From: Nitrososphaera viennensis EN76
Lineage (GTDB): Archaea > Thermoproteota > Nitrososphaeria > Nitrososphaerales > Nitrososphaeraceae
Assembly (NCBI RefSeq): GCF_000698785.1
Contig: NZ_CP007536.1
Coordinates: 1,500,001-1,532,000, forward strand
Direction of reading: 5' to 3'
Length of the DNA: 32,000 nt
Below, piece by piece: positions 5,172 to 21,746 of the stretch (positions are counted from its first letter, which is position 1; the number at the start of each line of letters is the position of its first letter). The translations under genes were made by a program, and so were the position numbers. The notes under the pieces were generated by a model that ran no database searches, was not told the origin of the DNA, and saw nothing but the letters and a program-made list of their open reading frames with translations.

Positions 5172-5183
5172 ACACCATAAGAT

Positions 5184-5399
5184 ATGCGCATGGTTTTCAA
5201 GTACATCGATATCCTGGGCGAGTCGGCAAAGAGCTTTGAGGACGCGGTCCAGAACGCCATAACAGAGACTGCAAGGACCGTCAAGGACATCCGCACGGCA
5301 GAGGTGATGAAGATGAACGCCATTGTCAACAGCGACAAGATAGTAGAGTACCAGGCGGTGGTGCGCGTTGCATTCAAGGTCCGCCGGAAGGAAGAATAG
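5184..5399 (+). CDS. dodecin (small flavin-binding protein) family
   Basis: MVFKYIDILGESAKSFEDAVQNAITETARTVKDIRTAEVMKMNAIV..IVEYQAVVRVAFKV matches the dodecin pattern. The start may be the second ATG at 5190. A TATA-like TTTAAAAG lies at 5161-5168. Confidence 0.75.
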   Translation: MRMVFKYIDILGESAKSFEDAVQNAITETARTVKDIRTAEVMKMNAIVNSDKIVEYQAVVRVAFKVRRKEE

Positions 5400-5445
5400 C
5401 TGCTACCCTAAAGATTGATAAGATGCGCAGCTTGCCATCAACGGC

Positions 5446-5664
5446 ATGGGCGCAGTGAAGGGCAACAAGGGCGCAGGTGCGGCCCTTTTAGCGGCTGCAA
5501 TAATCGTGTTTTTCGCCTACGCCTACGCCATGTTCGGGACGCAGTACAGCGAGATGATAATCAAGTTCACGATGGTGGCCGCGGTGGGCATACTCCTTGC
5601 GGTGCTTGGCTGGATAGGCTACACGATGCTGACTGCGCCAAAGGAAGACAGAGTCACTTCGTGA
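5446..5664 (+). CDS. small two-helix membrane protein, unknown function
   Basis: 72 aa with two clear hydrophobic helices (AALLAAAIIVFFAYAYAMF and MVAAVGILLAVLGWIGYTML). Its 3' end overlaps the convergent methyltransferase gene by 11 nt. Confidence 0.5.
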   Translation: MGAVKGNKGAGAALLAAAIIVFFAYAYAMFGTQYSEMIIKFTMVAAVGILLAVLGWIGYTMLTAPKEDRVTS

Positions 5665-6502
5665 TTTTCACGTCGGCGACGATCTGGTAGACGCGCGGGC
5701 CGACTTCCCGGACCACCGTTGTTTCCATGATTTCGCAGCTGTAGGGCGCAAACGCCTCTGCAGCGTCCCTTGCGCCTGCCTCTTCCCTTGCCTTCTGCTT
5801 GCCGTCTGCCTTGACGTGGGCAAAATAGTGCACGACGCCACCGCGCTCTTTCAGGGCAAGCACGGCCGGCCCGACAAACTCTCTTGCCCTTTCCGGAAGC
5901 GGCATTATCACCCTGTCTGCGACGCCTGCCAGCTGCGTTTTTATCGCTTCGGTCGCGTCAGCGCACACTGGCACGACGCGGTCGGCCACCTTGTTCAGCC
6001 TGGCATTTTCGATGCACAGGTAGTTTGCCACGGGGTTGGAGTCGACGCTGTACACCTTGCACGTCTTGACCGCCTTGGCGATTATTATCGAGTACGTGCC
6101 GACGCCGGCAAACATGTTGACCACCGTCTCGTTGTCCTGCACGAGGCCTGCTATGCGCTGGCGCTCTGTCGACAGGCGCGGCGAAAAGTAGGCGCGCGCA
6201 ACGTCGACCTTGAACCTGCAGCCATGCTCCCTGTACTCCGTGACCGTGCGGTTCTCGCCTGCGACGAACTCTAGCTCGCGGATGCGGTAGTCGCCCTTTA
6301 CCGCGGACGCCTGCGCAAACACCGCTTTTGCGGTCTTGACATTTGCAAGTATCGCCTCTGCTATAACTTGCTTTTTTGAGGCAAGGCTGTCAGGGATTTT
6401 TATTATGACAATGTCGCCCACCTGATCAAACGCGGAATAGACCTGCGATGCCTCTTCGGCAGGGAGCACGCCGGCTAGCACGTTTTTGAGCATGTGCGGC
6501 AT
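5654..6502 (-). CDS. class I SAM-dependent tRNA methyltransferase, Trm5/Taw2 (Met-10+) family
   Basis: VVNMFAGVGTYSIIIAK SAM-binding motif, YFSPRLSTER and DRVIMPLP motifs typical of Trm5/TYW2. Start codon lies 1 nt downstream of the ABCE1 stop, suggesting an operon. Confidence 0.75.
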   Translation of the reverse strand: MPHMLKNVLAGVLPAEEASQVYSAFDQVGDIVIIKIPDSLASKKQVIAEAILANVKTAKAVFAQASAVKGDYRIRELEFVAGENRTVTEYREHGCRFKVDVARAYFSPRLSTERQRIAGLVQDNETVVNMFAGVGTYSIIIAKAVKTCKVYSVDSNPVANYLCIENARLNKVADRVVPVCADATEAIKTQLAGVADRVIMPLPERAREFVGPAVLALKERGGVVHYFAHVKADGKQKAREEAGARDAAEAFAPYSCEIMETTVVREVGPRVYQIVADVKITK

Positions 6503-6503
6503 T

Positions 6504-8321
6504 TTATTGCTGCGGCTGCCTTGTGTAGTAATAGTTGCCCGAGTCCTTTTGCTCCCTGTCCAGCCTGCCGCCTTCCTTGTTCACGCGGGGCCTGCCGGTG
6601 GTCTCGTCGCGCCTGTATGTGATCGCAAGCGCCTTCAAAAAGCGGTTCATGCCATCCTCCTTGCGCATGGGGGCAGTCGCGTGGCCTTCTATGCCCGGCT
6701 CGCCCTCGAATATCACGAGCGTGTCTGACACAAGGTCTACCAGCTGGAGGTCGTGGTCGATGATTATCGCCGAGCGCCCCTGCGCCCTGACAAAGCGCTG
6801 CAGGAATTTTGCGACCGCTATCCTGTCCTCTGCATCAAGGAAGGCGGACGGCTCGTCAAGCGCGTAAATGTCTGCCTGGCGCAAGAGTGATGCGGCAACC
6901 GCGACCTTTTGCAGCTCGCCTCCGCTCAGGTTCTTGACGCTCTTTTCAAGAAGTTTCTTTATGCCAAGCGGGATTATGATCTGCTCTTCTGCCGGCGAGT
7001 TTTCGATTGGGGCCTGGTACGCCGTGTACAGGAGCGAGCGCACGTCGCCCTCGTAATCCTGGTTGAGGTACTGCGGCTTGTACGATATCTTGGCGCCTAC
7101 CTCAATCTTGCCCGAGTTGGGCTTGTCGACCCCGGCGAGCATGCGCATGAACGTCGTCTTGCCGAGCGCGTTTGCGCCCACCACGCCCACTATCTCGCCC
7201 CTGCGGATCTTGCCCGCAGCGACGTTCAGCCTGAACGAGGGAAATGCCTTTGAAACGTCGGTATAGCTTGCGACTGCCAGTTCCTCCACGATGTCGTCCG
7301 CCGCGGTGGCAACGTCAAAGCGGAACGCCTTTTCGCGGAACCGCACGTTTTCCGCCGGCAAATAGCCGTCAAGAAAGTTGTTGATGCCAACCTTGGTGCT
7401 CTGCAGTGCCGAGACGATGCCGTACGCGCCCGGCTCGCCGTATATTATATGAATATAGTCGGACAGATAGTCAAGGAGCGTCATGTCGTGCTCGACTACC
7501 ATCACGCTCTTGCCCTGCTCTGCAAGGTTTTTCATCACCTTTGCGACTGCAAGGCGCTGGTACACGTCGTTGTACGAGGACGGCTCGTCGAAAAAGTAAT
7601 AGTCGGCGTCCTTTGCCGCCGCCACCGCCACCGCAAGGCGCTGGAGCTCGCCTCCCGAAAGAGTAGCAAGGTCGCGGTCAAGAACGTTTTTCAGTCCCAG
7701 CTCTTCGACCAAGCTGTCAGAGACCTTGCGCTCGTCGTATTTCTTTAGCAGTTCTTTTGGCGTGCCCTTGAAAGCCTTTGGTATCAGGTACACGAGCTGC
7801 GGCTTGATCGAAGCGCGCAGCTGGCCGTTTGCTATCTTTTCAAAGTGGGCTTTTAGCTCAGTGCCCTGAAAATATTTCAGCACCTCGTCCCATGCAGGCT
7901 CGCCCTCGAACCTGCCGAGGTTTGGCTTCATGCTGCCTGAAAGGACGTTTACGATCGTGGACTTGCCCATGCCGTTTCGGCCCACGAGGCCGACCACCGC
8001 GCCTTTTTTTGGAGTCGGCAGGCGGTAAAAGCGGAACGAGTTGACGCCGTATTGATGAATTTTGTCCTCCGACAGCTCTTTTGCAAGGTTGACTATTACA
8101 ATGGCGTCAAAGGGGCATTTCTTTATGCAGATGCCGCAGCCCGTGCACAGTTCTTCGGATATAAGCGCTTTTCCATCCTCCTCGCGCTGGATTATGCACT
8201 GGCCCCCCGTCTTGTTCACCGGGCAGTATACTATGCACTCTAGGCCGCACTTTCTTGGCTGGCACAGCTCATAGTCCATTACCGCTACGCGGTGGGTCGA
8301 TGACGGGTCGTCGCTTCCCAT
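6504..8321 (-). CDS. abce1: ABCE1 / RNase L inhibitor-type ribosome recycling ATPase
   Basis: N-terminal 2x[4Fe-4S] Cys clusters (CIVYCPVNK, CTGCGICIKKCP). Two ABC domains with Walker A GRNGMGKST and GANALGKTT, and two LSGGELQ signatures. Start taken at ATG 8321 (MGSDD...RVAVMDYELCQP); the track extension to 8486 has no family-like sequence. Confidence 0.95.
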   Translation of the reverse strand: MGSDDPSSTHRVAVMDYELCQPRKCGLECIVYCPVNKTGGQCIIQREEDGKALISEELCTGCGICIKKCPFDAIVIVNLAKELSEDKIHQYGVNSFRFYRLPTPKKGAVVGLVGRNGMGKSTIVNVLSGSMKPNLGRFEGEPAWDEVLKYFQGTELKAHFEKIANGQLRASIKPQLVYLIPKAFKGTPKELLKKYDERKVSDSLVEELGLKNVLDRDLATLSGGELQRLAVAVAAAKDADYYFFDEPSSYNDVYQRLAVAKVMKNLAEQGKSVMVVEHDMTLLDYLSDYIHIIYGEPGAYGIVSALQSTKVGINNFLDGYLPAENVRFREKAFRFDVATAADDIVEELAVASYTDVSKAFPSFRLNVAAGKIRRGEIVGVVGANALGKTTFMRMLAGVDKPNSGKIEVGAKISYKPQYLNQDYEGDVRSLLYTAYQAPIENSPAEEQIIIPLGIKKLLEKSVKNLSGGELQKVAVAASLLRQADIYALDEPSAFLDAEDRIAVAKFLQRFVRAQGRSAIIIDHDLQLVDLVSDTLVIFEGEPGIEGHATAPMRKEDGMNRFLKALAITYRRDETTGRPRVNKEGGRLDREQKDSGNYYYTRQPQQ

Positions 8322-8508
8322 GCAAGCTCTTTGCGGCGTGAATGCGTTATATAGGTAGTGTTTTTTTTCGCATCTAAAAGTCCTGCCGGCAACCCGGAGC
8401 ATAGCAAAAACTGGCGTGCGTCCCTGCCGCCAGCAATCGGGCGATTTTTTGCCACCTGGTACGCCTGGGCAGTACCTGTCAGCCATACCACAAATGCCCT
8501 GCCTCTAG

Positions 8509-8745
8509 TCGCGAGCTTGGCAGGCGAGTCTCTCTGCTCCTGCGGTCAGGGACCGGCTGGAGCGCCTGAAGAGCAAAGGGATCCTCCAGAGGTTCATGCT
8601 ATCGATGGATCCAGGCGTGTTTGACCGCGATGACCTTTTGCTGTTCTTCCGGGGCGACTTTACGCGAAAGACTGTGCTGGCGGCGCTTGCGGCGCCGGAC
8701 GTATCCTGGGTGGCCTGGAAGCTGGACGAGCGGATGACCGTATGA
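8509..8745 (+). pseudogene. startless remnant of an Lrp/AsnC-type HTH+RAM module, in frame with the downstream CDS and separated from it by one TGA
   Basis: The frame opens after TAG 8506-8508 and reads SLSAPAVRDRLERLKSKGILQRFMLSMDPGVFDRDDLLLFFRGDFTRKTVLAALAAPDVSWVAWKLDERMTV, then TGA at 8743-8745, then ATG at 8746. There is no plausible start codon before the HTH recognition helix. Confidence 0.5.
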
Positions 8746-9333
8746 ATGTGGACAAAAGACGAGCGCAAGGCCACGGACGGCCTCGCAAATATCCTGGGGT
8801 CCAGGCCCTCGGGACGGGCTTTTACGCCACGCAAAAAGAAGAGGCGAGCGCCGGTTTCGATTATCGACCTGTCCATAATGGATGCCTTGGTAGACGATCC
8901 CAAGTTGCCATTTGGCGAACTTGTAAAATCCACGGGGCTGAGTCCAAAGACTGTACGCAAGCACCTTGAGCTGCTCTTAGAGACGAAAACGATTTCCATC
9001 GAGCCAAGTCTAGGGGCACTGACGGATTCCGGCAAATTGATATATCAGCTGCTGGTCGCCGGGAGGGTCGGCATGAGCGAAGTGCGAAGGACAATAGGCG
9101 AGACTGCCCTGACGCACCACACCCAGGAACCGCCGACGAAGTACATGCTCCGCATGGGAAGCTCGCTGGCCGATGTGATGACAAAGACCCGCGTGCTGGA
9201 AAAGGTCCAGGGAGTCGAGTCTGTCACGATTTCTTTGAACCGGGAGGTGCTGGTCTCTACGGACCTCAGGCACTCCCTAATCAGGAAGGAAATTCACAAG
9301 CTGGAAAAGGAACGAAGAGCAAGGTTAAATTAA
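8746..9333 (+). CDS. Lrp/AsnC-type winged-HTH transcriptional regulator
   Basis: HTH segment IIDLSIMDALVDDPKLPFGELVKSTGLSPKTVRKHLELLLETKTI followed by a RAM/ACT-like beta-alpha-beta region. The first ~20 residues continue the upstream remnant domain. Confidence 0.7.
   Translation: MWTKDERKATDGLANILGSRPSGRAFTPRKKKRRAPVSIIDLSIMDALVDDPKLPFGELVKSTGLSPKTVRKHLELLLETKTISIEPSLGALTDSGKLIYQLLVAGRVGMSEVRRTIGETALTHHTQEPPTKYMLRMGSSLADVMTKTRVLEKVQGVESVTISLNREVLVSTDLRHSLIRKEIHKLEKERRARLN
9325..9333 (+). promoter_or_regulatory. TATA-like box for the 5S rRNA gene
   Basis: TTAAATTAA centred about 23-25 nt upstream of the inferred 5S 5' end. It lies inside the last codons of the Lrp-like gene. Confidence 0.4.
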
Positions 9334-9351
9334 CCCCTTCTTGAAAGAGAG

Positions 9352-9473
9352 GGTAAGCCGGTCATAGCGGCAGGGTGCGACCCGGTCCCATTCCGAACCC
9401 GGAAGTCAAACCTGTCGTCGCTGCTGTGTTACTGATCTGCGTGAGCGGTCGGGAAGCAGCAGTGCTGGCATTA
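9352..9473 (+). rRNA. rrf: 5S ribosomal RNA (stand-alone, no 16S/23S nearby)
   Basis: Contains the conserved 5S core GGTCCCATTCCGAACCCGGAAGTCAAAC. 5' GCCGGT (9357-9362) can pair with 3' GCTGGC (9464-9469) as helix I. Ends are +/- 3 nt. Confidence 0.9.
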
Positions 9474-9484
9474 TCATCATCATA

Positions 9485-10057
9485 TCATACATACTCGTTC
9501 TCCCCAAAGTGCACCTGCTTCATCAGCTTGCGGGCGTGCATCGCCATCCTGTCCAGGATCCCAAACACGGAGGCAAGGCCAGCAGGGTCCCACACCGACG
9601 TTTCAACGACGCAGCAATAGTTGTGCGCCCGGACGTTGATGCGCTTGCACTCTTCCTTCATGATGTTTTTTGCAAGCTCGGCCGAAAGCTCGGCATCTTG
9701 CGCAAGCAGGTTTGAAAGCACGCCTCCGCTCCAGCCCAGGTTCTTTGGCCGGCCGTTATGCAGCTGGAAATACGGGCTTGCGTCCAGCAGGTTGTGGGCG
9801 TTGTCGTCGCTTCCCGACAGCGAGTCGTTTCCGACGAGGCAGTAGACGTTGAAAAACGGGCCCATGCGCACGACCTCCTCTATCCCGATATAGTCTATGT
9901 GGCCGCTTTCCATGGTCACAAAGCCGTCACGGTTTTGCAGCCACCGCTCAAAGTAGGGCCACCTGTCCGGCCTGACGTCTGACCTGGCTCCTTCCTTGCA
10001 CGCGTAGCCAAGAGCCGCAAGGGCCTCCACCAGAGTGTCGACTGCAAAAATAGGCAT
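9485..10057 (-). CDS. hypothetical protein, likely co-transcribed with pepA
   Basis: ORF 9485..10258 trimmed to ATG 10057 (MPIFAVDTLVEALAALGY...), because upstream codons overlap the pepA 3' end. Start lies 8 nt after the pepA stop. No family recognised. Confidence 0.55.
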   Translation of the reverse strand: MPIFAVDTLVEALAALGYACKEGARSDVRPDRWPYFERWLQNRDGFVTMESGHIDYIGIEEVVRMGPFFNVYCLVGNDSLSGSDDNAHNLLDASPYFQLHNGRPKNLGWSGGVLSNLLAQDAELSAELAKNIMKEECKRINVRAHNYCCVVETSVWDPAGLASVFGILDRMAMHARKLMKQVHFGENEYV

Positions 10058-11661: not shown

Positions 11662-12093
11662 CTATGAGGAGGAGGCGAAGGGAAAGGTCGCGCCGTGCGA
11701 CAGCATCCTTGCCAGGCGCTTGAAGACGTTGGTCGGCGTGTAGCACGACATCAACGGGGTGCCGTCGTACTCGCAGGCAGGTGCAGACAACATGTCTATG
11801 TTTTTTCTGCCTCCCCGGAACCATCCTGCAACTATCTCTCTTGCCAGCGGCGGCAGTCCCGAGCGGGCCCCGTGCGCGCCTGACCTGTTGACGAGCCAGA
11901 ACATGCGGGTAGCGTCATAGCCTTTTGGGAATATCATCTCCCTGGCCCTCTTGGCCTCCTCCGAGTGGTAGTGGCCTGCGGTGCGTATCCAGCCCCTTGA
12001 GAGGGCGCTGGCGGTCCTGGCGAACTTGGTGCACGAGTAGCACTTGTCGTCGTATATGAGTAGCGGCCTTGCAAACGTCGATGACAGCGACAA
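11662..12093 (-). CDS. DCC-family thiol-disulfide oxidoreductase (DUF393)
   Basis: N-terminal LIYDDKCYSCTKFA matches the YDGxCxxC motif of the DCC family; the size (143 aa) fits. Confidence 0.6.
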   Translation of the reverse strand: MSLSSTFARPLLIYDDKCYSCTKFARTASALSRGWIRTAGHYHSEEAKRAREMIFPKGYDATRMFWLVNRSGAHGARSGLPPLAREIVAGWFRGGRKNIDMLSAPACEYDGTPLMSCYTPTNVFKRLARMLSHGATFPFASSS

Positions 12094-12229
12094 GCGACAA
12101 GGTACCTTGTACCGCCGGCGTTATAGCCTTTTTTTAGGTAGTAGTAGTGTAGAGGCGCACGGAGCTATGTTTTTATTTCCTCGAAGACTGGTTTCAGCTG
12201 CCGCTTGGGCTGTTGCTGGCAGGGTGACA

Positions 12230-13879
12230 ATGACAATAATGGGATTTGACATGCGCTATCTGGAGCTGAAGAGAAAGGTACGCGAGGTCCGCATGTGGGC
12301 CATCCAGGGGATCGCGGAGGCCGGCTCGGGCCACCCCGGCGCGTCGTTTTCGGCCGCAGAGATAATGAGCACGCTCTACTTCCGCAGGATGAGGCATGAC
12401 CCGAAAGACCCGGCGTGGCAGGAGCGCGACTACTTCATCAATTCAAAGGCTCATTCTGCGCCCGGCTATTACTCGACCCTTGCGGTGGCAGGCTATTTCC
12501 CGCCGGAAGAACTGAAAACGCTGCGCAAGCTGGGATCGCGCCTCCAGGGCCACCCCGTGCGCTACTCGGGGCGCCAGAAGGACCACAGCGTGCCCGGCGT
12601 AGAGTATTCCGGCGGATCGGAGGGCATCGGGCTCTCGGTCGGTGTCGGCATCGCGCTTGCAAGCAAGCTGGACGGCAAGAAAAACCGCGTCTATGTCATG
12701 ATAGGCGACGGCGAGTCAAACGAGGGCCAGATATGGGAGGCCTCGATGGCGGCTGCAAAATTCAAGCTTGACAACCTGGTAGCGGTGCTTGACCGAAACC
12801 GCATCCAGCAGGACGGCTTTACCGAGGACATCATGCCCCTTGACCCGGCAAAGAACAAGTGGGAGGCGTTCAACTGGCAGGTGTTTGAAGTAGACGGCCA
12901 CCGCGTGGAGCAGTTGGTGGACGCGCTGAACAGGGCGTCTCAGGTAAAGGACAAGCCCGTGATGATAGTCGCAAACACGGTCAAGGGAAACGGGATACGC
13001 CACATGGCAAACAACCCGCAGTGGCACGGAAAGGCGCCGTCGAAAAAGCAGACGCCAGTGCTCCTTGAGGAGCTGGAAAGCGAGTACTTCATCGCGCCCT
13101 CCATAATCGCCGGCGAGAAGGAAAACTATGAGGACAAGATACGCAAGGTCGAGCGCGAGGGCGTGGAGATGATACACCTCGACGTCATGGACGGCAAGTT
13201 CGTCCCGAACACGACGTTCCTTGCCGACACGATAAAGCGCCTGAGGCGCGTTACCGTGCTTCCCTTTGACGCGCACCTGATGATAGAAAACCCTCTCGCA
13301 CACATTGACGAGTACATCGACGCGCGCTGCGACGTCATCACGGTCCACGCAGAGGCGTGCAACGAGGACGAGTTTGTGCAGATACAGGACAGGTGCCTGG
13401 CGGCAGGCATCAGCCCCGGAATCGCGATAAACCCCAAGACAGACATACCAGAATGGCTGTACCCACACATTTCAAACGTCGACGTCGTGATAGTCATGTC
13501 GGTCAACCCCGGCTTTGCAGGCCAGAAATTCATGCCAGAGGTGCTTCCAAAGATGGTCGCAGTCAACAAAAAGCTTCGCGAGCACGGCTTTAAAGGCTAC
13601 ATAGAGGCCGACGGAGGTATCGACTCGACAACACTGCCGCAGGTGTACGACGCCGGCGCGCGCATATTTGTCGCCGGCAACGCAGTCTACGGCAACGTCG
13701 ACGTGCACACGGCGGTGATACAGCTGCGCCACAAGGCGGCAGTCGCGCTTGAGAAGAAACTTCTCGACCATGCGACGCGCATCGGGATAAGGGGCGACTG
13801 GATGAAGGCGCGTAAACATATATTGATTCCGTACGCTTCTGAACTTGGGATAGAGGCAGAGCTTCATGCTATTAAGTAG
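12230..13879 (+). CDS. fusion protein: transketolase N-terminal (TPP-binding) subunit + ribulose-phosphate 3-epimerase
   Basis: The TktN part has GSGHPGASFSAAEIMSTLYF and GDGESNEGQIWEA. The C-terminal ~225 aa has Rpe motifs IAPSI..., HLDVMDGKFVPN, DAHLM, MSVNPGFAGQKF and EADGGI. Start is ambiguous (ATG 12167, 12230, 12239 or 12251); the track start at 12044 overlaps the divergent DCC gene. Confidence 0.85.
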   Translation: MTIMGFDMRYLELKRKVREVRMWAIQGIAEAGSGHPGASFSAAEIMSTLYFRRMRHDPKDPAWQERDYFINSKAHSAPGYYSTLAVAGYFPPEELKTLRKLGSRLQGHPVRYSGRQKDHSVPGVEYSGGSEGIGLSVGVGIALASKLDGKKNRVYVMIGDGESNEGQIWEASMAAAKFKLDNLVAVLDRNRIQQDGFTEDIMPLDPAKNKWEAFNWQVFEVDGHRVEQLVDALNRASQVKDKPVMIVANTVKGNGIRHMANNPQWHGKAPSKKQTPVLLEELESEYFIAPSIIAGEKENYEDKIRKVEREGVEMIHLDVMDGKFVPNTTFLADTIKRLRRVTVLPFDAHLMIENPLAHIDEYIDARCDVITVHAEACNEDEFVQIQDRCLAAGISPGIAINPKTDIPEWLYPHISNVDVVIVMSVNPGFAGQKFMPEVLPKMVAVNKKLREHGFKGYIEADGGIDSTTLPQVYDAGARIFVAGNAVYGNVDVHTAVIQLRHKAAVALEKKLLDHATRIGIRGDWMKARKHILIPYASELGIEAELHAIK

Positions 13880-14846
13880 CGAGAAAAAGACGGCAGACAT
13901 GAGGGGCGCGTACGGCGATGCCCTCGTGGAGCTTGGCAAGACCGACTCGCGCATCGTCTGCGTCGGAGGGGACACCACCGACTCGCTCAAGACCAAGAAA
14001 TTTGGCGACAAGTACCCGGAGCGCATGTTCAACGTCGGGATCGCAGAGGCAAACCTCGTCTCGATCGCCGCCGGCCTGGCAATTGCAGGCAAGGTGGCGT
14101 TTGCAAGCACCTATGCGGCTTTTATCCCTGGAAGGGCGGTCGACCAGATCCGAAACACGATATGCTATCCCGCCCTTGACGTCAAGCTGGTCGTGTCGCA
14201 CGGCGGCCTGACAGTAGGCCCGGACGGCGCGTCGCATCAGCAGATTGAAGACCTGAGCACGACTCGCGCCATGCCAAACATGCGCGTCATGGTTCCCGCG
14301 GACGCGGTCGCAGTCAGGCACCTGATAAAGGCGATGGTCGACACTCCGGGCCCCTTTTACATGCGCCTTGCAAGGCCGACCACAGAGCTTGTTTATGCAG
14401 AGTCGACCCCGGCCGACCAGTTCAGGGTCGGCAGGGGCAACGTGCTTGTGGACGGCTCTGACGCGACGATAGTTGCGTGCGGCCTGATGGTCGGAAAGGC
14501 GCTTGAAGCCGCAAATCTCCTAAAGCGCGAGGAGGGCATCTCTGCAAGGGTGGTCGACATGTTCACGATAAAGCCGGTCGATTTTGACCTCGTGGCAAAG
14601 TGCGCCAAGGAAACCGGCGCTATTGCCACCGCCGAAGAGCACAACATCATCGGAGGCCTCGGTGCGGCTGTTTCAGAGGCGGCAGGAGAAACTTATCCGG
14701 TGCCGATAAAGCGCGTCGGCGTGCGCGACACGTTTGGCGAGTCGGCAAGGGACGAGGAGGTCGACACGCTCCTGGAGCAGTACGGCCTGACCGCAACAGA
14801 AATAGCAAAGGCGGTAGTTGAAGCAAGGAGCAGGATGAAAAAATAA
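13866..14846 (+). CDS. transketolase C-terminal (pyrimidine-binding) subunit
   Basis: RGAYGDALVELG, FNVGIAEANLVSIAAGLA and HGGLTVGPDGASHQ motifs. Overlaps the upstream gene by 14 nt. Confidence 0.9.
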   Translation: MLLSSEKKTADMRGAYGDALVELGKTDSRIVCVGGDTTDSLKTKKFGDKYPERMFNVGIAEANLVSIAAGLAIAGKVAFASTYAAFIPGRAVDQIRNTICYPALDVKLVVSHGGLTVGPDGASHQQIEDLSTTRAMPNMRVMVPADAVAVRHLIKAMVDTPGPFYMRLARPTTELVYAESTPADQFRVGRGNVLVDGSDATIVACGLMVGKALEAANLLKREEGISARVVDMFTIKPVDFDLVAKCAKETGAIATAEEHNIIGGLGAAVSEAAGETYPVPIKRVGVRDTFGESARDEEVDTLLEQYGLTATEIAKAVVEARSRMKK

Positions 14847-14847
14847 G

Positions 14848-15513
14848 ATGAAGATCTTTCTTGACACGGCCAACCTCGACTCGATAAAAAAGTACAACGA
14901 CATGGGCCTGGTCGACGGGGTCACCACCAACCCGACGCTTCTGTCAAAGGAGAAGGGAAACCCGGCCGACATCATGCACGAGATCGTGCGCATTGTCAAG
15001 GGCCCGGTGAGCCTCGAGGTCGTCGGGACGACGTACGACAGCATGATGGAAGAGGCGCACAGGCTGAAAAAATACGGCAGAAACGTCGTAGTCAAGATAC
15101 CGATGCTCCCTGACGGCATGAAGGCGGTCAAGAAGCTCAGTGAGGAAGGAATAGAGACAAATGTCACGCTGGTCTTCTCCGCAAACCAGGCAGTCCTTGC
15201 TGCAAAGGCGGGCGCGTCGTACGTCAGCCCGTTCATAGGCAGGCTGGACGACGCGGGGCAGGACGGCATGACCCTGATACGGGAGATAGTGCAGATCTTT
15301 AACAACTACAAGTTCACCACAAACGTGCTCGTCGCAAGCGTGCGCCACCCGATGCACGTGGTGGAGGCAGGCAAGGTTGGTGCCCACGTAGTCACGCTGC
15401 CCCCCGACATACTCGGCAAGATGATGGCCCACCCGCTCACCGACAAGGGGCTTGCCGCGTTTCTTGCAGACTGGGAGAAGGTAAAGAAGGAAAACCCGAA
15501 ACTGTCGCTCTAG
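14848..15513 (+). CDS. tal: transaldolase / fructose-6-phosphate aldolase family (short type 3B)
   Basis: MKIFLDTANLDSIKK...GVTTNPTLL, VVVKIP (Schiff-base Lys context) and SPFIGRLDD. Starts 1 nt after the tktC stop. Confidence 0.9.
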   Translation: MKIFLDTANLDSIKKYNDMGLVDGVTTNPTLLSKEKGNPADIMHEIVRIVKGPVSLEVVGTTYDSMMEEAHRLKKYGRNVVVKIPMLPDGMKAVKKLSEEGIETNVTLVFSANQAVLAAKAGASYVSPFIGRLDDAGQDGMTLIREIVQIFNNYKFTTNVLVASVRHPMHVVEAGKVGAHVVTLPPDILGKMMAHPLTDKGLAAFLADWEKVKKENPKLSL

Positions 15514-17114
15514 GCGCGCAAGAGCTTTATCACTTTTTTCGGCATGTCCTGGAGCCGGCTGACCGACAGGGCCTTTTCATAGTTCAGGTATTTCAGGTTC
15601 TGGCCGATTCCCACCGCGTCGTTGAGGTTGCGCCCGACCCCTATTGCCACCATCTTTATCCCGACCTTGCGGTAGGAAAGCACCATCGCCCTCACGGCGT
15701 CAAAGTCGGACGGCTCGCCGTCGGTCAGGGTCACGAATATGTCCGGCTTGAACGACTTGAGCACCGGCTGCAGGAGCCCGTAGACCTCTGCAAGCGGCGT
15801 CCCACCAACCGCCTTTATCTGCGCGAGCCGGCGGGCGCACACGAGCGACCACTTGACCGTTGGCGGCTTGACCACCCAGCACTTTACCTGCCGGTTCTCG
15901 GTGGAAAACGCGTACACGGCAAACTTCACGCCAAGGTAGCTGAGTGCCTCGCAGAGTGCAACCGTGGCCTGCTTGTATTCAGTCTCCACGTCGGCTATGC
16001 TGCTTGAATGGTCCAGGAGCAGGACGACCTTGGACTTTATCGACAGTTTCACGTCAGAGAGGAAGGGCTTTGGCAGCGATTCCACAATAGTCTCGATGTC
16101 AAGCTCCTCGCCTGTCTCGTCATGGCGCTCGACCCAGCCTGTCTTCCACTCCCTGAACGCGGCCTTGACCTTCTGTATGAGGTCGAGGTCGTAGATTTGC
16201 GTCTCGTCCACGTCCATCCTGTCCGGCACGCTCAGGCCAAAGTTCTCCAGGCTGTCGTAGCCCTTGTTCTCGGTCTTCTTGCTCTCCTTGACGAGCGCCT
16301 CGAACTCGTGCAGCACGTCGCTTCCCTCGTAGATCTCTTTGGACTTTTCCTCGGAATCCTTTTCCCTCTTTTTCGTCCTGACGACCTTCTCTATCTGCTT
16401 CAGCACGTCCTGCTGCGTCAGCGACGCGCCCATCCTGGTGCGGGGCGCAAGGACGGGTATGGAGACAAGCGGGTCAAGCTCCAGCATCTTTATCAGTTTT
16501 GGGATCTGCTGCTCGACCCACTCGGTGCCATAGTTGTTGTCAAGCGCCTCCTTCACCACCTCGTTGGCAAACTCGACGGCTTTCTGCACCTTCTCAAGCT
16601 CGCCCCCGAAAAGCTCGCCCTTTACATAGCCTGTCAGGAAATACTGCGAGAACGCCTCTGCAATCTTGTACCGGCCGTAGATGGTGTTCAAAAGCTGCCG
16701 GGACTGCCACGATATACCCTCGTAAAATATCAGCTCGTTTTCCATGCCCTCCCAGTCGCGGAGGCCCAGTATCTCGACGCGCTTTGTCTCTAGCGTGTTC
16801 AAGAGAAAGCCAAAAGCGTGCTCGTTTGACAGCACCTTGCTTGAATGGCGCATGCGCATCGACTCGTACCAGAGGGCGACGCGCCACTGCCTGTATCTTT
16901 GAAAGTCCGTGCCGACGTAGTAGGCAAGCGCCGGTAGCGTCACCTGGCTCTTGTCCGGCTTGGTCGCCGGCGGCCTGTCCGGCGCAAGCGTGATTATTGT
17001 CCTGTCATTTCCTGACCACCTGCGGGCAAGGAACGTGGCGATGTCCAGGAGGACGTCGTTTCGCATCACGGCTTTTTCAAGCTTGGACATTGTTTTGTCG
17101 TCACTTGTCGCCAA
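15510..17114 (-). CDS. von Willebrand factor A domain protein, NorD/CbbO/CobT-like partner of the adjacent AAA+ ATPase
   Basis: C-terminal VWA with MIDAS VVLLLDHSSSI ... GGTPLAE ... TLTDGEPSD, and a long helical N-terminal region. Its start overlaps the AAA+ gene by 14 nt. Confidence 0.8.
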   Translation of the reverse strand: MATSDDKTMSKLEKAVMRNDVLLDIATFLARRWSGNDRTIITLAPDRPPATKPDKSQVTLPALAYYVGTDFQRYRQWRVALWYESMRMRHSSKVLSNEHAFGFLLNTLETKRVEILGLRDWEGMENELIFYEGISWQSRQLLNTIYGRYKIAEAFSQYFLTGYVKGELFGGELEKVQKAVEFANEVVKEALDNNYGTEWVEQQIPKLIKMLELDPLVSIPVLAPRTRMGASLTQQDVLKQIEKVVRTKKREKDSEEKSKEIYEGSDVLHEFEALVKESKKTENKGYDSLENFGLSVPDRMDVDETQIYDLDLIQKVKAAFREWKTGWVERHDETGEELDIETIVESLPKPFLSDVKLSIKSKVVLLLDHSSSIADVETEYKQATVALCEALSYLGVKFAVYAFSTENRQVKCWVVKPPTVKWSLVCARRLAQIKAVGGTPLAEVYGLLQPVLKSFKPDIFVTLTDGEPSDFDAVRAMVLSYRKVGIKMVAIGVGRNLNDAVGIGQNLKYLNYEKALSVSRLQDMPKKVIKLLRA

Positions 17115-17931
17115 AGATCGAGGTTATCATGTCCAGGACCTTCTGGTATTCCACCTGGCCCCACTGGTCGTACGCGTTTGCGTACACGACTTCGGCAGCC
17201 TGCCTGCCTGAAAGCCCGGCGTTTAGCATCTTGGCAAACGCTATGGTCTCCCTGAGCGACGGGCTGTAATACAGCTCTTCCACGGCCGCGGCGTCGCGCA
17301 GGCTCCTGGCGAGCTGTATAGCGTGCTTGACGTCGCGCATCCTGCCGTCGTCCATCTTGACGTGCCTCTTTACTATCTCCAGCTCCAAGTCCTCCGGCGG
17401 GTAGTCAAGCCTCATCCTCACCGGGAACCTGCTCAAGAGCTGCGGCGGCAGTTCCTTTGTCCCCACGTGCGAAAGCGGGTTTATCGTCGCAATCACGAAC
17501 CAGTCCGGCGACGCCTTTACGAGCTGGCCCTCGGCCTCCTTGAGCACCAGCTGGCGCCTGTCGTCGAGGGCCTCGTCAAGGCGCAGGAGGACGTCCGCTT
17601 CTGCTGCGTTTAGCTCGTCGAGGTACAGCATCGTTCCTTCCTTCATCGATTTTACCAGCACGCCTTCGACAAAGCTTATCTCCCCCTTGTCAATCGTCCT
17701 CGTGCCGACAAGGTGCGATTCCCTCGTTCTGAGCGAAAAGTTCACGGAATAAAGCTCTTTTTTCATCGCCGAGGCGAACTTGCGCACAAGCGTGGTCTTG
17801 CCGGTCCCCTTGGGGCCGATGATTAGCACAAAGAGCCCGGCCTTGTAGGCCTTTTCAAGCACGTCCAGGGCGTTGTTCCAGTCAAGGTAAACCACCTCAT
17901 GACTGCCATCGTCCAGTTCAGTCGCTGCCAT
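17101..17931 (-). CDS. AAA+ ATPase, MoxR class, CbbQ/NirQ/NorQ (AAA_5) type
   Basis: Walker A IIGPKGTGKTT, Walker B MLYLDELNAAE, ATINPLSHVGTKELPPQLLSRF (sensor/arginine finger region). Start taken at ATG 17931 (MAATELDD). Confidence 0.85.
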   Translation of the reverse strand: MAATELDDGSHEVVYLDWNNALDVLEKAYKAGLFVLIIGPKGTGKTTLVRKFASAMKKELYSVNFSLRTRESHLVGTRTIDKGEISFVEGVLVKSMKEGTMLYLDELNAAEADVLLRLDEALDDRRQLVLKEAEGQLVKASPDWFVIATINPLSHVGTKELPPQLLSRFPVRMRLDYPPEDLELEIVKRHVKMDDGRMRDVKHAIQLARSLRDAAAVEELYYSPSLRETIAFAKMLNAGLSGRQAAEVVYANAYDQWGQVEYQKVLDMITSIFGDK

Positions 17932-17983
17932 CTCTGGGTTATAGCGGGGTACAATGGTATTTGAGCGTTTAAGCGTACGAGAG

Positions 17984-17994
17984 ATATTATAATA
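17984..17994 (+). promoter_or_regulatory. TATA-like box upstream of the hemerythrin-like gene
   Basis: ATATTATAATA about 30 nt upstream of ATG 18024, within the 92-nt divergent intergenic region. Confidence 0.35.
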
Positions 17995-18023
17995 GAGGCG
18001 CCTGCACACTTTTTCCCGCGGCG

Positions 18024-18587
18024 ATGAGCACCCGGGAGCTCGTGCAGGACCACGCCACTGTCAGGCGCATACGCGACATTGCGCAGAAATGCTCCGACAG
18101 GCTGTACGCCGGCGACGACATCCCGCTTGAGGAAATCGAGATAATCTCCGTCGTCATCGAAGAGTTTGTGGACGCGTTCCACCACGGCAAGGAGGAAAAG
18201 GCCTACTTTCCGGCAAACGAGCGCAAGAGTGGCGACTACGCGGAGGAGGTGCGCAAGTTCAAGATAGAGCACGAGTTCGGGCGCAGGGTCGCAGGGATGA
18301 TGCTCCGCAGCCTGAAAAAGTGGAAGAGCGGGGTTGTTGACGGCAGGGAGCCCGTCGCGCGGTTCTTAAAGACGTACGCGGCGTTTGTCACGGACCACAC
18401 CGGCAAGGAAGAGAAATTTTTTGAAATGGTCGAAGAAATGAGGAGCATATCAAGCGAGGAGGACAGGCAGATCCTGCGCCACTATGAGGCGTGCAGGATC
18501 GACGTGGGAGGGAGCGCAAGGGTGCAGGAGTTGTTGAGGCTGGTCGAGTACCTGGAAGAAAGGGAGTGGATGAAGAAGAAAAAATGA
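18024..18587 (+). CDS. hemerythrin-like (HHE cation-binding) domain protein
   Basis: Repeated His/Glu motifs spaced as in a four-helix-bundle di-iron protein: DAFHHGKEEKAYFP, KIEHEFGRR, VTDHTGKEEKFFE. Confidence 0.65.
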   Translation: MSTRELVQDHATVRRIRDIAQKCSDRLYAGDDIPLEEIEIISVVIEEFVDAFHHGKEEKAYFPANERKSGDYAEEVRKFKIEHEFGRRVAGMMLRSLKKWKSGVVDGREPVARFLKTYAAFVTDHTGKEEKFFEMVEEMRSISSEEDRQILRHYEACRIDVGGSARVQELLRLVEYLEEREWMKKKK

Positions 18588-18597
18588 TCCATCGCTG

Positions 18598-19974
18598 CTA
18601 CTCCACAGTCAGGCTTCCCTCCATCCACGGATGCAGCGCGCAGTAATAGTCGTGCCTGCCTGCGCTGTCGAATTTGTGCGTCCACGAGCCGCCTGCCCCT
18701 ATCAGCGACGAGTCAAAAGCCCCCTGCCTGTCGGTGACCGTGTGCACTATGGTGTCCTGGTTTACCCAGGTCACTTCCGATCCTGCATTGACAGAGATTT
18801 CGCGCGGGGCATAGTTCTCTTTTTGTTTGTTGTCCCACGAGCCTGCCACGATTGCCACCTGCGGGCCTGCGCCATGATGGGGGGAAGAGGAGGAGCTTGC
18901 CGGGGCGGTGGCGTTGTTTGCACCGCCGGTGTACTCTGTCACCTCCGGCTTTTGCAGCTTTTCAATCAGCTCGTGCTGCCAGCCTATCATCGACTCTGCC
19001 CGGTACGGCCCCTGCGACGGCTCGACCATTATCTCGCCCATGTTGCCCCGCTCTTCCTGCAGGCCGTGGCTGTGGAAGAGGTACGTCCCGGGCCACTTCC
19101 ACGTCGCCTCGACTATGGCGGCGTTTCCCGGCCCTATTTCGACCGTCTGGGCGTCTATCGGGTCGTTGGACCAGAGCCCCGACGGGTACGCCTTGAAGAT
19201 GGTGCTGTGAAGGTGGAACGAGTACGGGATGGTGGTGCCCATGTTGATGACGTACATCCTGATAAGCTCGCCCTGCCTGACGTGCAGCATGTTGTTGTCT
19301 TCGCCCATGTACTGGTCCGCGTAGCCGTTTACGAGATAGTACCTGGGCACAAAGCTCTCCTGGTCTTCCGGGTCAAACTCGCCCATCACTATCACAAACT
19401 CTCTTGCCGGCTCGGGCTTGCTGTTGCTGTCATCTTTGGGGTCTACTATCAGCGCGCCGTACATGCCCATCCTGATGTGGAGCGACGTCGGGTACGCGTG
19501 GCAGTGGTACATCAGCGCGCCGGCGGGGTCGGCCACGAAAGTGTAGTTGTAAGCCTCCCCGGGGAGCAACTGCGGGTGGACCCCGTCGCTTTCGTCGTCG
19601 TGGTTCCCGTGCAGGTGGAGCGTGTGCGCAAGGGGCGTCTTGTTTATGAAATGTATGGTGACGTTGTCGCCCTCGGTGAACCTGAGGGTCGGCCCGGGCA
19701 TCGTGCCGTTGAACGTCCACGCTTTAACGCGCTCGCCGGGCGCTATCTCGATCTCGGCTTCTTCGGCCACGAGCGTGACCTCTTTTTTAGCATTAGCATT
19801 ATTATTGTTGCTGTCTGCCGCCGCTGCCGCTGCTCCTCCTCCTGCCGCCCGGCCTTCAGGCGCAAGGAAGAAGAGCGAGCCGGCCACAACGCTTGAAGCA
19901 ACCGCGGCCACGACTGCAAGAGCAAGAAGCTTTTTCCCTCCCCTACCATCATTATTGTTGTTTTCACTTGGCAT
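18598..19974 (-). CDS. membrane-anchored/secreted two-domain multicopper oxidase fused to a C-terminal cupredoxin (amicyanin/plastocyanin-like) domain
   Basis: Four HxH-type motifs: HTLHLHG and YHCHAYPTSLHIRMGM (domain 1, type-1 Cu C-x7-H-x4-M), then FHLHS and LFHSHG (domain 2). The C-terminal domain has HTV ... YYCALHPWMEG (C-x2-H-x2-M). N-terminal hydrophobic anchor KKLLALAVVAAVASSVVAG. Start taken at ATG 19974. Confidence 0.85.
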   Translation of the reverse strand: MPSENNNNDGRGGKKLLALAVVAAVASSVVAGSLFFLAPEGRAAGGGAAAAAADSNNNNANAKKEVTLVAEEAEIEIAPGERVKAWTFNGTMPGPTLRFTEGDNVTIHFINKTPLAHTLHLHGNHDDESDGVHPQLLPGEAYNYTFVADPAGALMYHCHAYPTSLHIRMGMYGALIVDPKDDSNSKPEPAREFVIVMGEFDPEDQESFVPRYYLVNGYADQYMGEDNNMLHVRQGELIRMYVINMGTTIPYSFHLHSTIFKAYPSGLWSNDPIDAQTVEIGPGNAAIVEATWKWPGTYLFHSHGLQEERGNMGEIMVEPSQGPYRAESMIGWQHELIEKLQKPEVTEYTGGANNATAPASSSSSPHHGAGPQVAIVAGSWDNKQKENYAPREISVNAGSEVTWVNQDTIVHTVTDRQGAFDSSLIGAGGSWTHKFDSAGRHDYYCALHPWMEGSLTVE

Positions 19975-20072
19975 AGGAAAAATTTCTCTGGTTTTGCATA
20001 TAGGCAGGCCGTATACACAGCAAGCCCGCCTCCGTACTATAATCGCCTGCAACCTTTTGCAGCCGGCCGCAG

Positions 20073-20101
20073 GCGCGCCTGCTTGCCGGCGCTTGCAATG
20101 C
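20073..20101 (+). promoter_or_regulatory. operator-like element S1 (GCGCGCCTGCTTGC-CGGCGCTTGC-AATGC)
   Basis: The 21-mer 20081-20101 is 20/21 identical to 21070-21090. GCTTGC is repeated with 10-bp phasing. The element lies ~10 nt upstream of the TATA-like TTTTAATA (20111-20118) of the ABM gene. Confidence 0.5.
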
Positions 20102-20132
20102 AGACTCTTGTTTTAATAGGGGCGGAAAAGAT

Positions 20133-20471
20133 GTGATGGCGTTGGCGGACCAGCTGGTGGAAAAGCGCGCCCTCCTGGAGGGCATGGTATTCGTGGCAAT
20201 AGCGGACATTGAGCTGAAAAAAGGAAAGGAGGAGGAGTTCAAGAAGTGGTTTTTGCAGTCAAACCGCGTCCTTGCAAGGCAGGACGGCTTTATAGCAAGA
20301 AAGCTGCTAAAGTCGCCCAATGGGAGCCAGCACCGGATAATGGTCATCATGGAAAGCAAGGAGGCGTTTGCCAAGATGCACACGACATCCGAGCACGCCA
20401 AGCTCCACACGGAGGCGCTTGCGTTCATGGCAAGGCCGCCAAAAATATCCGCCTATGATTCCGTGTCCTGA
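20133..20471 (+). CDS. antibiotic-biosynthesis-monooxygenase (ABM, ferredoxin-like dimeric alpha+beta barrel) domain protein
   Basis: MVFVAIADIELKKGKEEEFKKWF...GFIARKLLKS...RIMVIMESKEAFAKMHTTSEH is the typical ABM pattern. Start is uncertain (GTG 20133, ATG 20136 or ATG 20184). Confidence 0.65.
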   Translation: MMALADQLVEKRALLEGMVFVAIADIELKKGKEEEFKKWFLQSNRVLARQDGFIARKLLKSPNGSQHRIMVIMESKEAFAKMHTTSEHAKLHTEALAFMARPPKISAYDSVS

Positions 20472-20485
20472 CTTGCTTGCTTTCG

Positions 20486-21016: not shown

Positions 21017-21069
21017 GGGGACTATTACAGAGTTTTTCCGCGTTTGAACTATAATAACGATGCTGAAAC

Positions 21070-21470: not shown

Positions 21471-21746
21471 ATGCCAAAAGAGCTTTCAGAAGCGCAAGCG
21501 TGGGAGATAGTCAAGCCGGTCTGCAGGGAGCTGGTCGAGCTCGTCAATGAAAAGATGGTCAGGTTCGTCTCTGCCACGGAAAGCGACAGCGGGACGTACG
21601 CGATTAACTTGAAATCAAGCCGGATTCATCTTGCCTCCCGCGGGTTCAAGGACAGCATCGGCGACATAGAGTACGGCGATGGAAAGCTGAGGATCGGGCT
21701 GCGGGCAAACGGCAGGCCGGGAAACATTTTCATCGACCTGGAATGA
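21471..21746 (+). CDS. hypothetical small protein
   Basis: 91-aa ORF with an ATG start and a TATA-like box 30-40 nt upstream. No family recognised. Confidence 0.45.
   Translation: MPKELSEAQAWEIVKPVCRELVELVNEKMVRFVSATESDSGTYAINLKSSRIHLASRGFKDSIGDIEYGDGKLRIGLRANGRPGNIFIDLE

Follow-up and report, generated by a model that had tools for sequence, protein, structure and literature searches.

NorQD and CbbQO are remodelers of metalloenzymes or other enzymes. Each is encoded by a two-gene operon in which the gene for an ATPase of ~270 amino acids (aa) with a single AAA_5 module comes first and that for a larger protein, whose VWA domain is C-terminal and bears a MIDAS site, comes second. Structures are known for NorQ/NorD, from denitrifiers with cNOR (PDB 9qh4–9qhg), and for the related Rubisco activase CbbQ/CbbO (PDB 5c3c and 6l1q). 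AAA_5 modules and a MIDAS domain are also combined in midasin (Rea1/Mdn1) of eukaryotes, which carries its six AAA modules on a single giant chain and works on pre-60S ribosomes, and adjacent genes for an AAA_5 ATPase and a VWA/MIDAS partner make up the viral 'cobST' cluster (phrog_249/phrog_5298), which is widespread in tailed phages and archaeal viruses (Liu et al., 2021; PMC8651126). In ammonia-oxidizing archaea (AOA), orphan norQ/norD genes have been reported since Hallam et al. (2006) and repeatedly thereafter. Zhalnina et al. (2014) argued from the proximity of a nirK-like multicopper oxidase (MCO) gene to norD/norQ, and the pair is not discussed in the main text of Abby et al. (2020). 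The present study concerns such a pair in Nitrososphaera viennensis EN76, in a window of 32,000 nucleotides (nt) covering positions 1,500,001–1,532,000 of its closed 2.53-Mb genome, in which an archaeal amoA gene was found.

The locus consists of five genes, NVIE_017700–017740, which encode a VWA/MIDAS protein, an AAA_5 ATPase, a hemerythrin-like protein, an MCO and an ABM-fold protein. The oxidase gene is named MCO4_a in PMC7785015 and PMC12448741 and is called MCO4a here. The orphan pair, the pairing of MCO4a with ABM and the pairing of hemerythrin with MCO4 are already in the literature. A first-pass annotation, made from the sequence alone, had described the ATPase/VWA pair as clustered with the other three genes and had proposed the neighboring MCO, or an N-oxide-handling complex, as the client of the ATPase/VWA pair.

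In this study, the locus was compared with those of related genomes, published expression data were examined and the relatives of each protein were sought. The results indicate that the genes very probably form two unrelated units lying side by side by chance, and that MCO4a is very unlikely to be the client. Unit A is the ATPase/VWA pair. Unit B (hemerythrin, MCO4a, ABM and the RHH regulator NVIE_017750) is a set of accessory genes responding to copper limitation and biofilm growth.

Conservation of the gene neighborhood

All five genes are present with the positions and domains that the first-pass annotation had given them, and the spacings of 92 nt (ATPase/hemerythrin), 10 nt (hemerythrin/MCO) and 158 nt (MCO/ABM) are likewise correct. 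Gene order and products agree with NVIE_017680–017760 in two published N. viennensis datasets. The features needed for the comparison are listed below.

12044–15513, plus strand: tktN–rpe fusion, tktC and tal (Pfam)
15510–17114, minus strand: VWA/MIDAS protein, the putative adaptor of Unit A (NVIE_017700); 534 aa; Pfam VWA
17101–17931, minus strand: AAA_5 (MoxR-class) ATPase of Unit A (NVIE_017710); 276 aa from the ATG; AAA_5 E = 2e-28
17932–18023, no strand: divergent intergenic region between the ATPase and hemerythrin genes; 92 nt, read from the sequence
18024–18587, plus strand: hemerythrin-like di-iron protein (NVIE_017720); Pfam Hemerythrin (PF01814) E = 7e-13
18577–20079, no strand: 1.5-kb segment with the MCO4a gene and its upstream region, missing from the collinear closest relative (L072)
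18598–19974, minus strand: MCO4a of Unit B (NVIE_017730); Cu-oxidase_3, Cu-oxidase_2 and a C-terminal plastocyanin-like domain
20133–20471, plus strand: ABM-fold protein of Unit B (NVIE_017740); Pfam ABM 28.3 bits, cut-off 23.1

Occurrence was surveyed in 86 genomes of the AOA order and 65 other genomes of the class Nitrososphaeria, and synteny in 110 loci in total, of which 30 came from ~20 AOA genera (with ±9-kb flanks) and 80 from species-level Nitrososphaeraceae genomes. The VWA gene is single-copy in 84 of the 86 AOA-order genomes and was found in none of the 65 others. The ATPase gene directly precedes it in all 30 loci from ~20 genera and in 78 of the 80 Nitrososphaeraceae loci, the remaining two of which end at a contig edge; every locus showing both genes (108 of 108) has them adjacent. 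Across AOA families the ATPase is 62–70% identical and the VWA partner 41–57%, and the pair is vertically inherited in AOA. Both pair genes are missing from two amoA-positive genomes, G135 (closed) and G141, which keep the hemerythrin gene. The pair is therefore near-universal yet dispensable for an ammonia oxidizer.

The genes on the other side of the ATPase do not share this conservation. No homolog of hemerythrin, MCO4a or ABM was found within ±9 kb of the pair in the 30 loci from ~20 AOA genera, and MCO4a adjoins the pair in none of the 80 Nitrososphaeraceae loci and in none of the 110 loci overall. Of the 86 other AOA genomes, ~25 carry a full-length gene of the MCO4 type, and in ~59 AOA genomes the pair is present and MCO4 absent. 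A distance of 139 kb separates the pair from Nmar_1353/1354 in N. maritimus. Hemerythrin and ABM genes stand upstream of the ATPase gene in only 11 of the 80 Nitrososphaeraceae loci, all close kin (VWA identity ≥79%); in these Nitrososphaera loci ABM adjoins hemerythrin, and all 11 are without the MCO.

The closest relative, L072 (ATPase 95% and VWA partner 91% identical), is collinear with the window from the aminopeptidase gene via tkt/tal, the pair, hemerythrin, ABM and the RHH gene and beyond, except for 18577–20079. In blastn comparisons, window positions 15001–18576 correspond to L072 9099–5502 and positions 20080–20472 to L072 5420–5025. An 81-nt AT-rich spacer occupies the place of the MCO4a segment in L072, and the GCTTGC-repeat element described below is kept. 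The MCO4a segment is thus a lineage-specific indel between hemerythrin and ABM, for which insertion in the N. viennensis line would be the most parsimonious origin. Because MCO4a lies beside the pair in N. viennensis alone among the genomes compared, it is very unlikely to be the client of the pair. The client is not encoded beside the pair.

The sole conserved neighborhood of the pair is formed by the tkt/tal genes. The order ATPase–VWA–tal–tktC–tktN/rpe holds nearly everywhere among the 80 Nitrososphaeraceae loci whose contig extends that far, and tkt/tal genes lie within ±9 kb of the pair in 14 of the 30 loci of other genera, about half of them directly adjoining the VWA gene. In the window, tktN–rpe, tktC and tal run toward the VWA gene, with a 4-nt overlap at the stop codons. 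Several Nitrosopumilaceae genera have tkt/tal genes near the pair.

A further observation concerns the Nitrosopumilaceae, in which the pair (L004, L021 and 23 other loci) lies 3′ of a conserved co-directional housekeeping string. This string encodes a DHH/RecJ-like protein, a 78-aa protein, seryl-tRNA synthetase, S3Ae, a 142-aa protein and a GGR-like FAD oxidoreductase, and also S15.

Expression under copper limitation and in biofilms

Log2 values for copper limitation were taken from the dataset of Reyes et al. (2020), and those for biofilm versus planktonic growth, together with transcripts per million (TPM), from the dataset of PMC12448741. Under copper limitation, the genes on the side of Unit A decrease slightly (VWA −0.65, ATPase −0.57, tktB −0.45, tal −0.40), whereas those on the side of Unit B increase (hemerythrin +2.85, MCO4a +4.27, ABM +2.05, NVIE_017750 +0.63). 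The opposite reactions meet in the 92-nt region between the ATPase and hemerythrin genes, whose divergent promoters respond with −0.57 and +2.85, respectively; a TATA-like A/T-rich stretch lies near 17984–17994. In biofilms, the pair again changes little (VWA −0.32, ATPase −0.28) and the values of Unit B are +1.80 for MCO4a, +2.38 for ABM, −0.56 for the RHH gene and −0.16 (not significant) for hemerythrin. Transcript levels are ~110–240 TPM for the pair and ~3,500–10,000 TPM for MCO4a.

Expression of the pair is moderate and steady and tracks that of its tkt/tal neighbors, not that of the oxidase; pair and MCO4a are uncorrelated under copper limitation and biofilm growth. A search with the copper-limitation promoter motif of Reyes et al. 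(TTCSGSMTTTGWACYANT) gave one match with two mismatches, at 21036–21053, which is uninformative as ~0.9 such matches are expected by chance.

Architecture of the ATPase and the VWA protein

The Walker A (GPKGTGKT) and Walker B (LYLDELN) motifs of the ATPase are invariant. As a single sequence, the ATPase matches solved NorQ (9qhd) end to end, residues 14–274 to 15–268, with E = 4.5e-24, and solved CbbQ (5c3c) with E = 4e-21. Its family profile scores 108 bits against NorQ (E = 4.5e-30), 92 bits against CbbQ and 57 bits against CobS, and single midasin AAA modules score ~72 bits against the ATPase. The full-length NorQ match of 88.6 bits is far below the level within the ATPase's own family, where identities are 61–70%, and CbbQ_C (PF08406) is not among the best 25 families listed at E ≤ 0.01.

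The VWA protein is predicted to have a conserved helical N-domain (~15–280), a low-confidence linker (324–358) and a C-terminal VWA domain (363–499); the mean pLDDT of the AlphaFold2 model is 80. The MIDAS residues D368-x-S370-x-S372, T439 and D465 do not vary in either of two sets of orthologs, one of 16 and one of 43. When the model was compared with the PDB using Foldseek, ranks 1–4 were the VWA domain of NorD in NorQ–NorD complexes (E = 5e-8 to 1.3e-7), with 254–268 aligned columns and TM scores (target) of 0.58–0.67, followed by the MIDAS domain of midasin as the next-best match. A profile of the virus- and element-borne VWA relatives described below also has NorD as its best solved match (6e-5). 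For the N-domain, no sequence or profile match to solved chains was found outside the VWA region; in the top-ranked NorQD entries, the modeled NorD chains comprise only 234–286 residues, compared with ~640 in the deposited sequence.

In sequence, profile and fold alike, no solved proteins come closer to the pair than NorQ and NorD, and 'NorQ/NorD-like', the label of the first-pass annotation, is therefore a fair description of the closest characterized relatives. Three features are at odds with full membership of the NorQ/NorD group: there is no CbbQ_C match, the N-domain has no detectable solved relative and no norCB or Rubisco companion is present. The N. viennensis pair differs from NorQ/NorD and CbbQ/CbbO in that neither norCB nor Rubisco genes accompany it, whether close by or elsewhere in the genome; neither norB nor norC was found within the window, no RuBisCO gene was found across the whole 2.53-Mb genome, and no norCB or Rubisco neighbor of the pair was seen in the 110 loci. 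Two full-length genes of the COX1 family (heme-copper oxidase subunit I) were noted at G000:C1:131631–132956 and 2312588–2313910, which are 1.4 and 0.8 Mb distant from the window. In contrast to midasin, the pair consists of two small proteins. Neither has a hydrophobic segment for export or membrane insertion, and the pair is presumably cytoplasmic.

Translational coupling of the two genes had also been proposed. The operon can be regarded as safe, but the exact overlap cannot: the 14-nt overlap hinges on a VWA start at the TTG at 17114, and a start at the ATG eight codons inward would leave a gap of ~10 nt after the ATPase stop. Relatives are alignable only from about residue 9–15, and the spacing within the pair is 0–30 nt in other genomes.

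Homologs outside the ammonia oxidizers

A phylum-wide scan found full-length homologs of the pair outside the AOA in a single genus of the Methanomethylicia/Verstraetearchaeota (g102). In its two loci (L156, G248:C36; L157, G262:C16), the ATPase is 63% identical to that of N. viennensis and the VWA partner 28%, and the neighbors are genes for a radical-SAM protein (Fer2_4 + Fer4), a DUF438–hemerythrin–PAS_10 protein and a flavodiiron protein (FprA). No amoA gene was found in these pair-bearing genomes. With the Methanomethylicia partner as the query, ~20 further protein clusters were found in metagenomes. Four of their contexts were examined on metagenome contigs (L164–L167): the AAA_5 gene is directly 5′ of the VWA gene in all four, inside unidirectional arrays of genes for a family-B DNA polymerase (PolB), an ERCC4 nuclease, primase, RFC-like and MCM-like proteins, TGT and integrases. 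The virus-like or element-like contigs with the pair are 38–54 kb long. A fifth homolog (L168) is located on an IMG/VR viral contig (UViG 3300034404_000018) whose predicted products include a large terminase, a major head protein and a head protease; IMG/VR scans found a close homolog on this one viral contig only, and as the scan was pattern-based it may overlook others.

The ATPases of viruses and elements are 61–67% identical to the AOA ATPase over the whole module, a level of identity also seen between AOA families, and their partners are 28–31% identical to the AOA partner. These ATPases are extended at the N-terminus by a region with a CPxCG motif that the AOA proteins lack. In an unrooted ATPase tree, which has no outgroups and gives no direction of transfer, the AOA sequences are separated from all non-AOA sequences (support 100/99); branching within the AOA agrees with their families, and the Methanomethylicia copy is nested among the element copies. 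The N. viennensis ATPase also matches phrog_249, the phage 'CobS' family, with E = 5e-38. The AOA VWA protein has no PHROG match, whereas its Methanomethylicia and UViG relatives match phrog_5298 at 6e-11 and 6e-6, respectively.

The pair thus resembles the viral 'cobST' cluster in consisting of an adjacent AAA_5 ATPase and VWA/MIDAS partner, but differs from it in that the AOA copy belongs to the chromosome, is single-copy and is inherited vertically. None of the integrated elements mapped in N. viennensis (NitVie-E1 to NitVie-E5) includes the window. What is new in this analysis is the 61–67% identity of the AOA ATPase to the ATPases of the same two-gene module on virus or mobile-element contigs and in Methanomethylicia.

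MCO4a and its associated genes

MCO4a is a two-domain multicopper oxidase with a C-terminal cupredoxin and is the counterpart of Nmar_1354, which it matches over its full length (PDB 9CCK; E = 7e-127) and with which it shares the architecture of two MCO domains and a 'dangling' cupredoxin. Nmar_1354 was characterized by Voland et al. (2025; PMC11761707) as a hydroxylamine:O2 oxidoreductase that converts NH2OH to HNO (nitroxyl). The enzyme purified from E. coli has its T1, T2/T3 and extra cupredoxin copper sites filled and is active, that is, it becomes holo without an ATPase/VWA helper, and the authors regard its reaction as off-pathway detoxification and not as the missing HAO (PMC11761707). 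Kraft et al. mention an earlier proposal that Nmar_1352–1357 process NO, and report that Nmar_1354 is up during anoxic O2 production. However, only about half of the residues are shared between Nmar_1354 and the window MCO, and the HNO chemistry has been shown for Nmar_1354 alone. Furthermore, MCO4a of N. viennensis is strongly induced by copper limitation whereas the N. maritimus counterpart responds otherwise, and the neighbors in N. maritimus are genes for an ArsR-type regulator, a flavodoxin and a nitroreductase.

Among the six proteins analyzed, MCO4a has the only strongly hydrophobic segment (residues 19–37; KD19 = 2.33), preceded by KK, and no twin-arginine motif was found in it. A hydrophobic segment without twin arginine argues for export or membrane anchoring in unfolded form, and a Sec-type signal or anchor is predicted. 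Two further features lie beyond the oxidase gene.

20081–20101, no strand: GCTTGC-repeat operator-like element 5′ of the ABM gene; a copy (TGCTTGCCAGCGCTTGCAA) is also found 5′ of ABM in L072
20486–21112, minus strand: putative RHH (CopG-like) regulator of Unit B (NVIE_017750, arCOG08805); 208 aa; RHH-like N-terminus

The C-terminal domain of NVIE_017750 is of unknown type, and the arCOG08805 label was taken from the PMC12448741 dataset. Homologs of this protein (46–51% identity) are encoded directly beside MCO4 genes in eight Nitrosopumilaceae loci, and paralogs flank MCO4b in the N. viennensis genome. RHH-type genes stand beside MCO4 in L053–L055, L063, L067–L070 and L071. From these positions, the RHH gene (arCOG08805) is likely to be a dedicated regulator of MCO4 genes. 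Krupovic et al. (2019; PMC6563490) named arCOG08805 (RHH), arCOG03914 (MCO) and arCOG01471 (hemerythrin) as being among the genes that integrated elements of thaumarchaea carry most often. Farther downstream, an open reading frame of 91 aa at 21471–21746 (plus strand), probably NVIE_017760, has no Pfam match and is 91% conserved in the closest relative. If it is the same gene, its log2 values are +3.20 under copper limitation (Reyes et al., 2020) and +1.5 in biofilms (PMC12448741).

Hemerythrin orthologs are present in all 86 AOA genomes, in most at positions unrelated to the pair, and the residues H10, H53, E57, H83, H125 and E129 are invariant in 33 AOA sequences. For NVIE_017720, only PF01814 was matched; no ScdA_N domain, NCBIfam match or PDB sequence match was found, and the 'RIC/YtfE type' proposed for it earlier was not borne out. 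A second hemerythrin copy adjoins MCO4 in several Nitrosopumilus genomes, including N. maritimus. In the tree, these MCO4-linked hemerythrins (L052–L056) are a genus-level duplicate nested within the Nitrosopumilus core hemerythrins (L032–L051; support 100/98), whereas NVIE_017720 is the AOA-core ortholog, with its nearest relatives lacking MCO4a. Since the Nitrosopumilus copy is a duplicate and the N. viennensis copy the core ortholog, the adjacency of hemerythrin and MCO4 arose at least twice. This repetition is modest evidence for a functional link between the two.

Discussion

The proposal that the pair is a metal-insertion or remodeling chaperone for MCO4a, or for an N-oxide complex around it, draws on the physical closeness of the genes in N. 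viennensis and on the precedent of NorQD and CbbQO as remodelers. The same proposal was made for N. evergladensis (Zhalnina et al., 2014). It is nevertheless extremely unlikely, and the results go against it on each of the three counts that the first-pass annotation had named, namely adjacency, co-expression and metallation. The oxidase gene is not beside the pair in 110 other loci, from the 30 of ~20 AOA genera to those of 80 Nitrososphaeraceae species, the closest relative included, and ~59 AOA genomes have the pair and no MCO4; pair and oxidase respond oppositely to copper limitation; and Nmar_1354 obtained from E. coli is holo and active without the pair (PMC11761707). In addition, an oxidase that is exported or anchored would be separated from a presumably cytoplasmic pair, and homologs of the pair occur in anaerobic Methanomethylicia and on virus contigs.

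A different client on the same side of the locus would be a di-iron protein, for example the AOA-core hemerythrin, into which the pair would insert non-heme iron or in which it would repair it, like NorQD at the FeB site of NorB. In 11 related species, as in N. viennensis, hemerythrin and ATPase genes are divergent, the di-iron ligands of the hemerythrin are conserved, both the hemerythrin and the pair are near-universal in AOA, and the Methanomethylicia pair stands beside DUF438–hemerythrin–PAS and flavodiiron genes. This explanation is improbable all the same: pair and hemerythrin are unlinked in most AOA and oppositely regulated under copper limitation, G135 and G141 keep hemerythrin without the pair, the Methanomethylicia hemerythrin domain has no detectable relation to the AOA hemerythrin, and the virus and element copies lie amid replication genes with no di-iron gene near. 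AOA are cobalamin producers. That, with the phrog_249 match of the ATPase (E = 5e-38), a Pfam CobT match in 4 of 18 virus/element relatives and the wide distribution of the viral cobST cluster (PMC8651126), speaks for a CobS/CobT-type chelatase motor for cobalamin synthesis, as proposed for viral cobST. However, no CobN/ChlH large subunit (PF02514) was found in the genome by a search in which controls were positive, and TIGR01650, the equivalog model for CobS, gives only 35.5 bits where its cut-off is 558. Solved CobS, at 57 bits, is well under NorQ (108) and CbbQ (92), CobT matches none of 16 AOA VWA proteins and no CobT structure is among the top 50 fold matches. A chelatase is highly improbable and was rejected on the missing CobN and the low CobS score.

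Three other roles were considered. A defense system, suggested by the arCOG02900 label 'predicted toxin ... vWA', was rejected, as the VWA protein has no PADLOC match and the ATPase only generic AAA matches; single copy, stable synteny and a tree that follows AOA families also contradict it. Maturation of AMO as an obligatory role is weakened by G135 and G141, which lack the pair, and by Methanomethylicia, which have the pair and no amoA. The presence of the pair in Methanomethylicia likewise weakens a heme-copper oxidase as the client.

An unlikely but credible alternative is that the pair belongs to a family of tightly conserved AAA_5–MIDAS remodelers that also occurs in archaeal viruses and mobile elements, acting in a midasin-like manner on a conserved housekeeping client and not as a chaperone of N-oxide or metal enzymes; in that case, an early ancestor of the AOA and its viruses may have exchanged the module. 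The element copies sit in a replication module, with PolB, primase, RFC-like, MCM and ERCC4 genes as neighbors, and the location of the Nitrosopumilaceae pair amid translation and replication genes agrees loosely with this explanation.

The preferred explanation remains the chance juxtaposition of Unit A and Unit B. By analogy with NorQD and CbbQO, the VWA adaptor of Unit A would grip a client protein via its N-domain and MIDAS site, and the ATPase ring would pull on the adaptor or on the client, opening a buried site or releasing a bound partner. The occurrence of the same module on virus and element contigs and in anaerobic Methanomethylicia suggests that this task is not specific to nitrogen-oxide, copper or ammonia-oxidation chemistry. 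Several points weigh against the preferred explanation. The mechanism of Unit A is drawn entirely by analogy, the choice between gain of the MCO4a segment in N. viennensis and its loss elsewhere is made by parsimony over 11 relatives, and the expression evidence is limited to two conditions. Missing conserved synteny does not prove missing interaction, as chaperones can serve unlinked clients, and formation of the holo-enzyme in E. coli with added copper leaves room for a helper role in the native cell.

Conclusions

For twenty years, AOA genome papers have recorded 'NorQ/NorD without NorB' and taken it to point to nitric-oxide chemistry still hidden, and at least one paper used the closeness of the pair to a NirK-like oxidase to argue for a shared pathway. 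As only one of the genomes compared shows this proximity, an attractive but false lead in the search for the missing enzymes of hydroxylamine and NO can be set aside. Few families share with the pair a nearly universal presence in AOA and absence from their non-oxidizing relatives. Because the nearest relatives of the pair are found in a lineage of anaerobic methanogens and on virus-like contigs, direct capture and not gene neighborhood should be used to look for its client, and G135 and G141 are natural loss cases that can be used for phylogenetic profiling. On the side of Unit B, the hemerythrin–MCO4 and RHH–MCO4 linkages provide concrete, testable partners for the sole AOA copper oxidase family of known chemistry.

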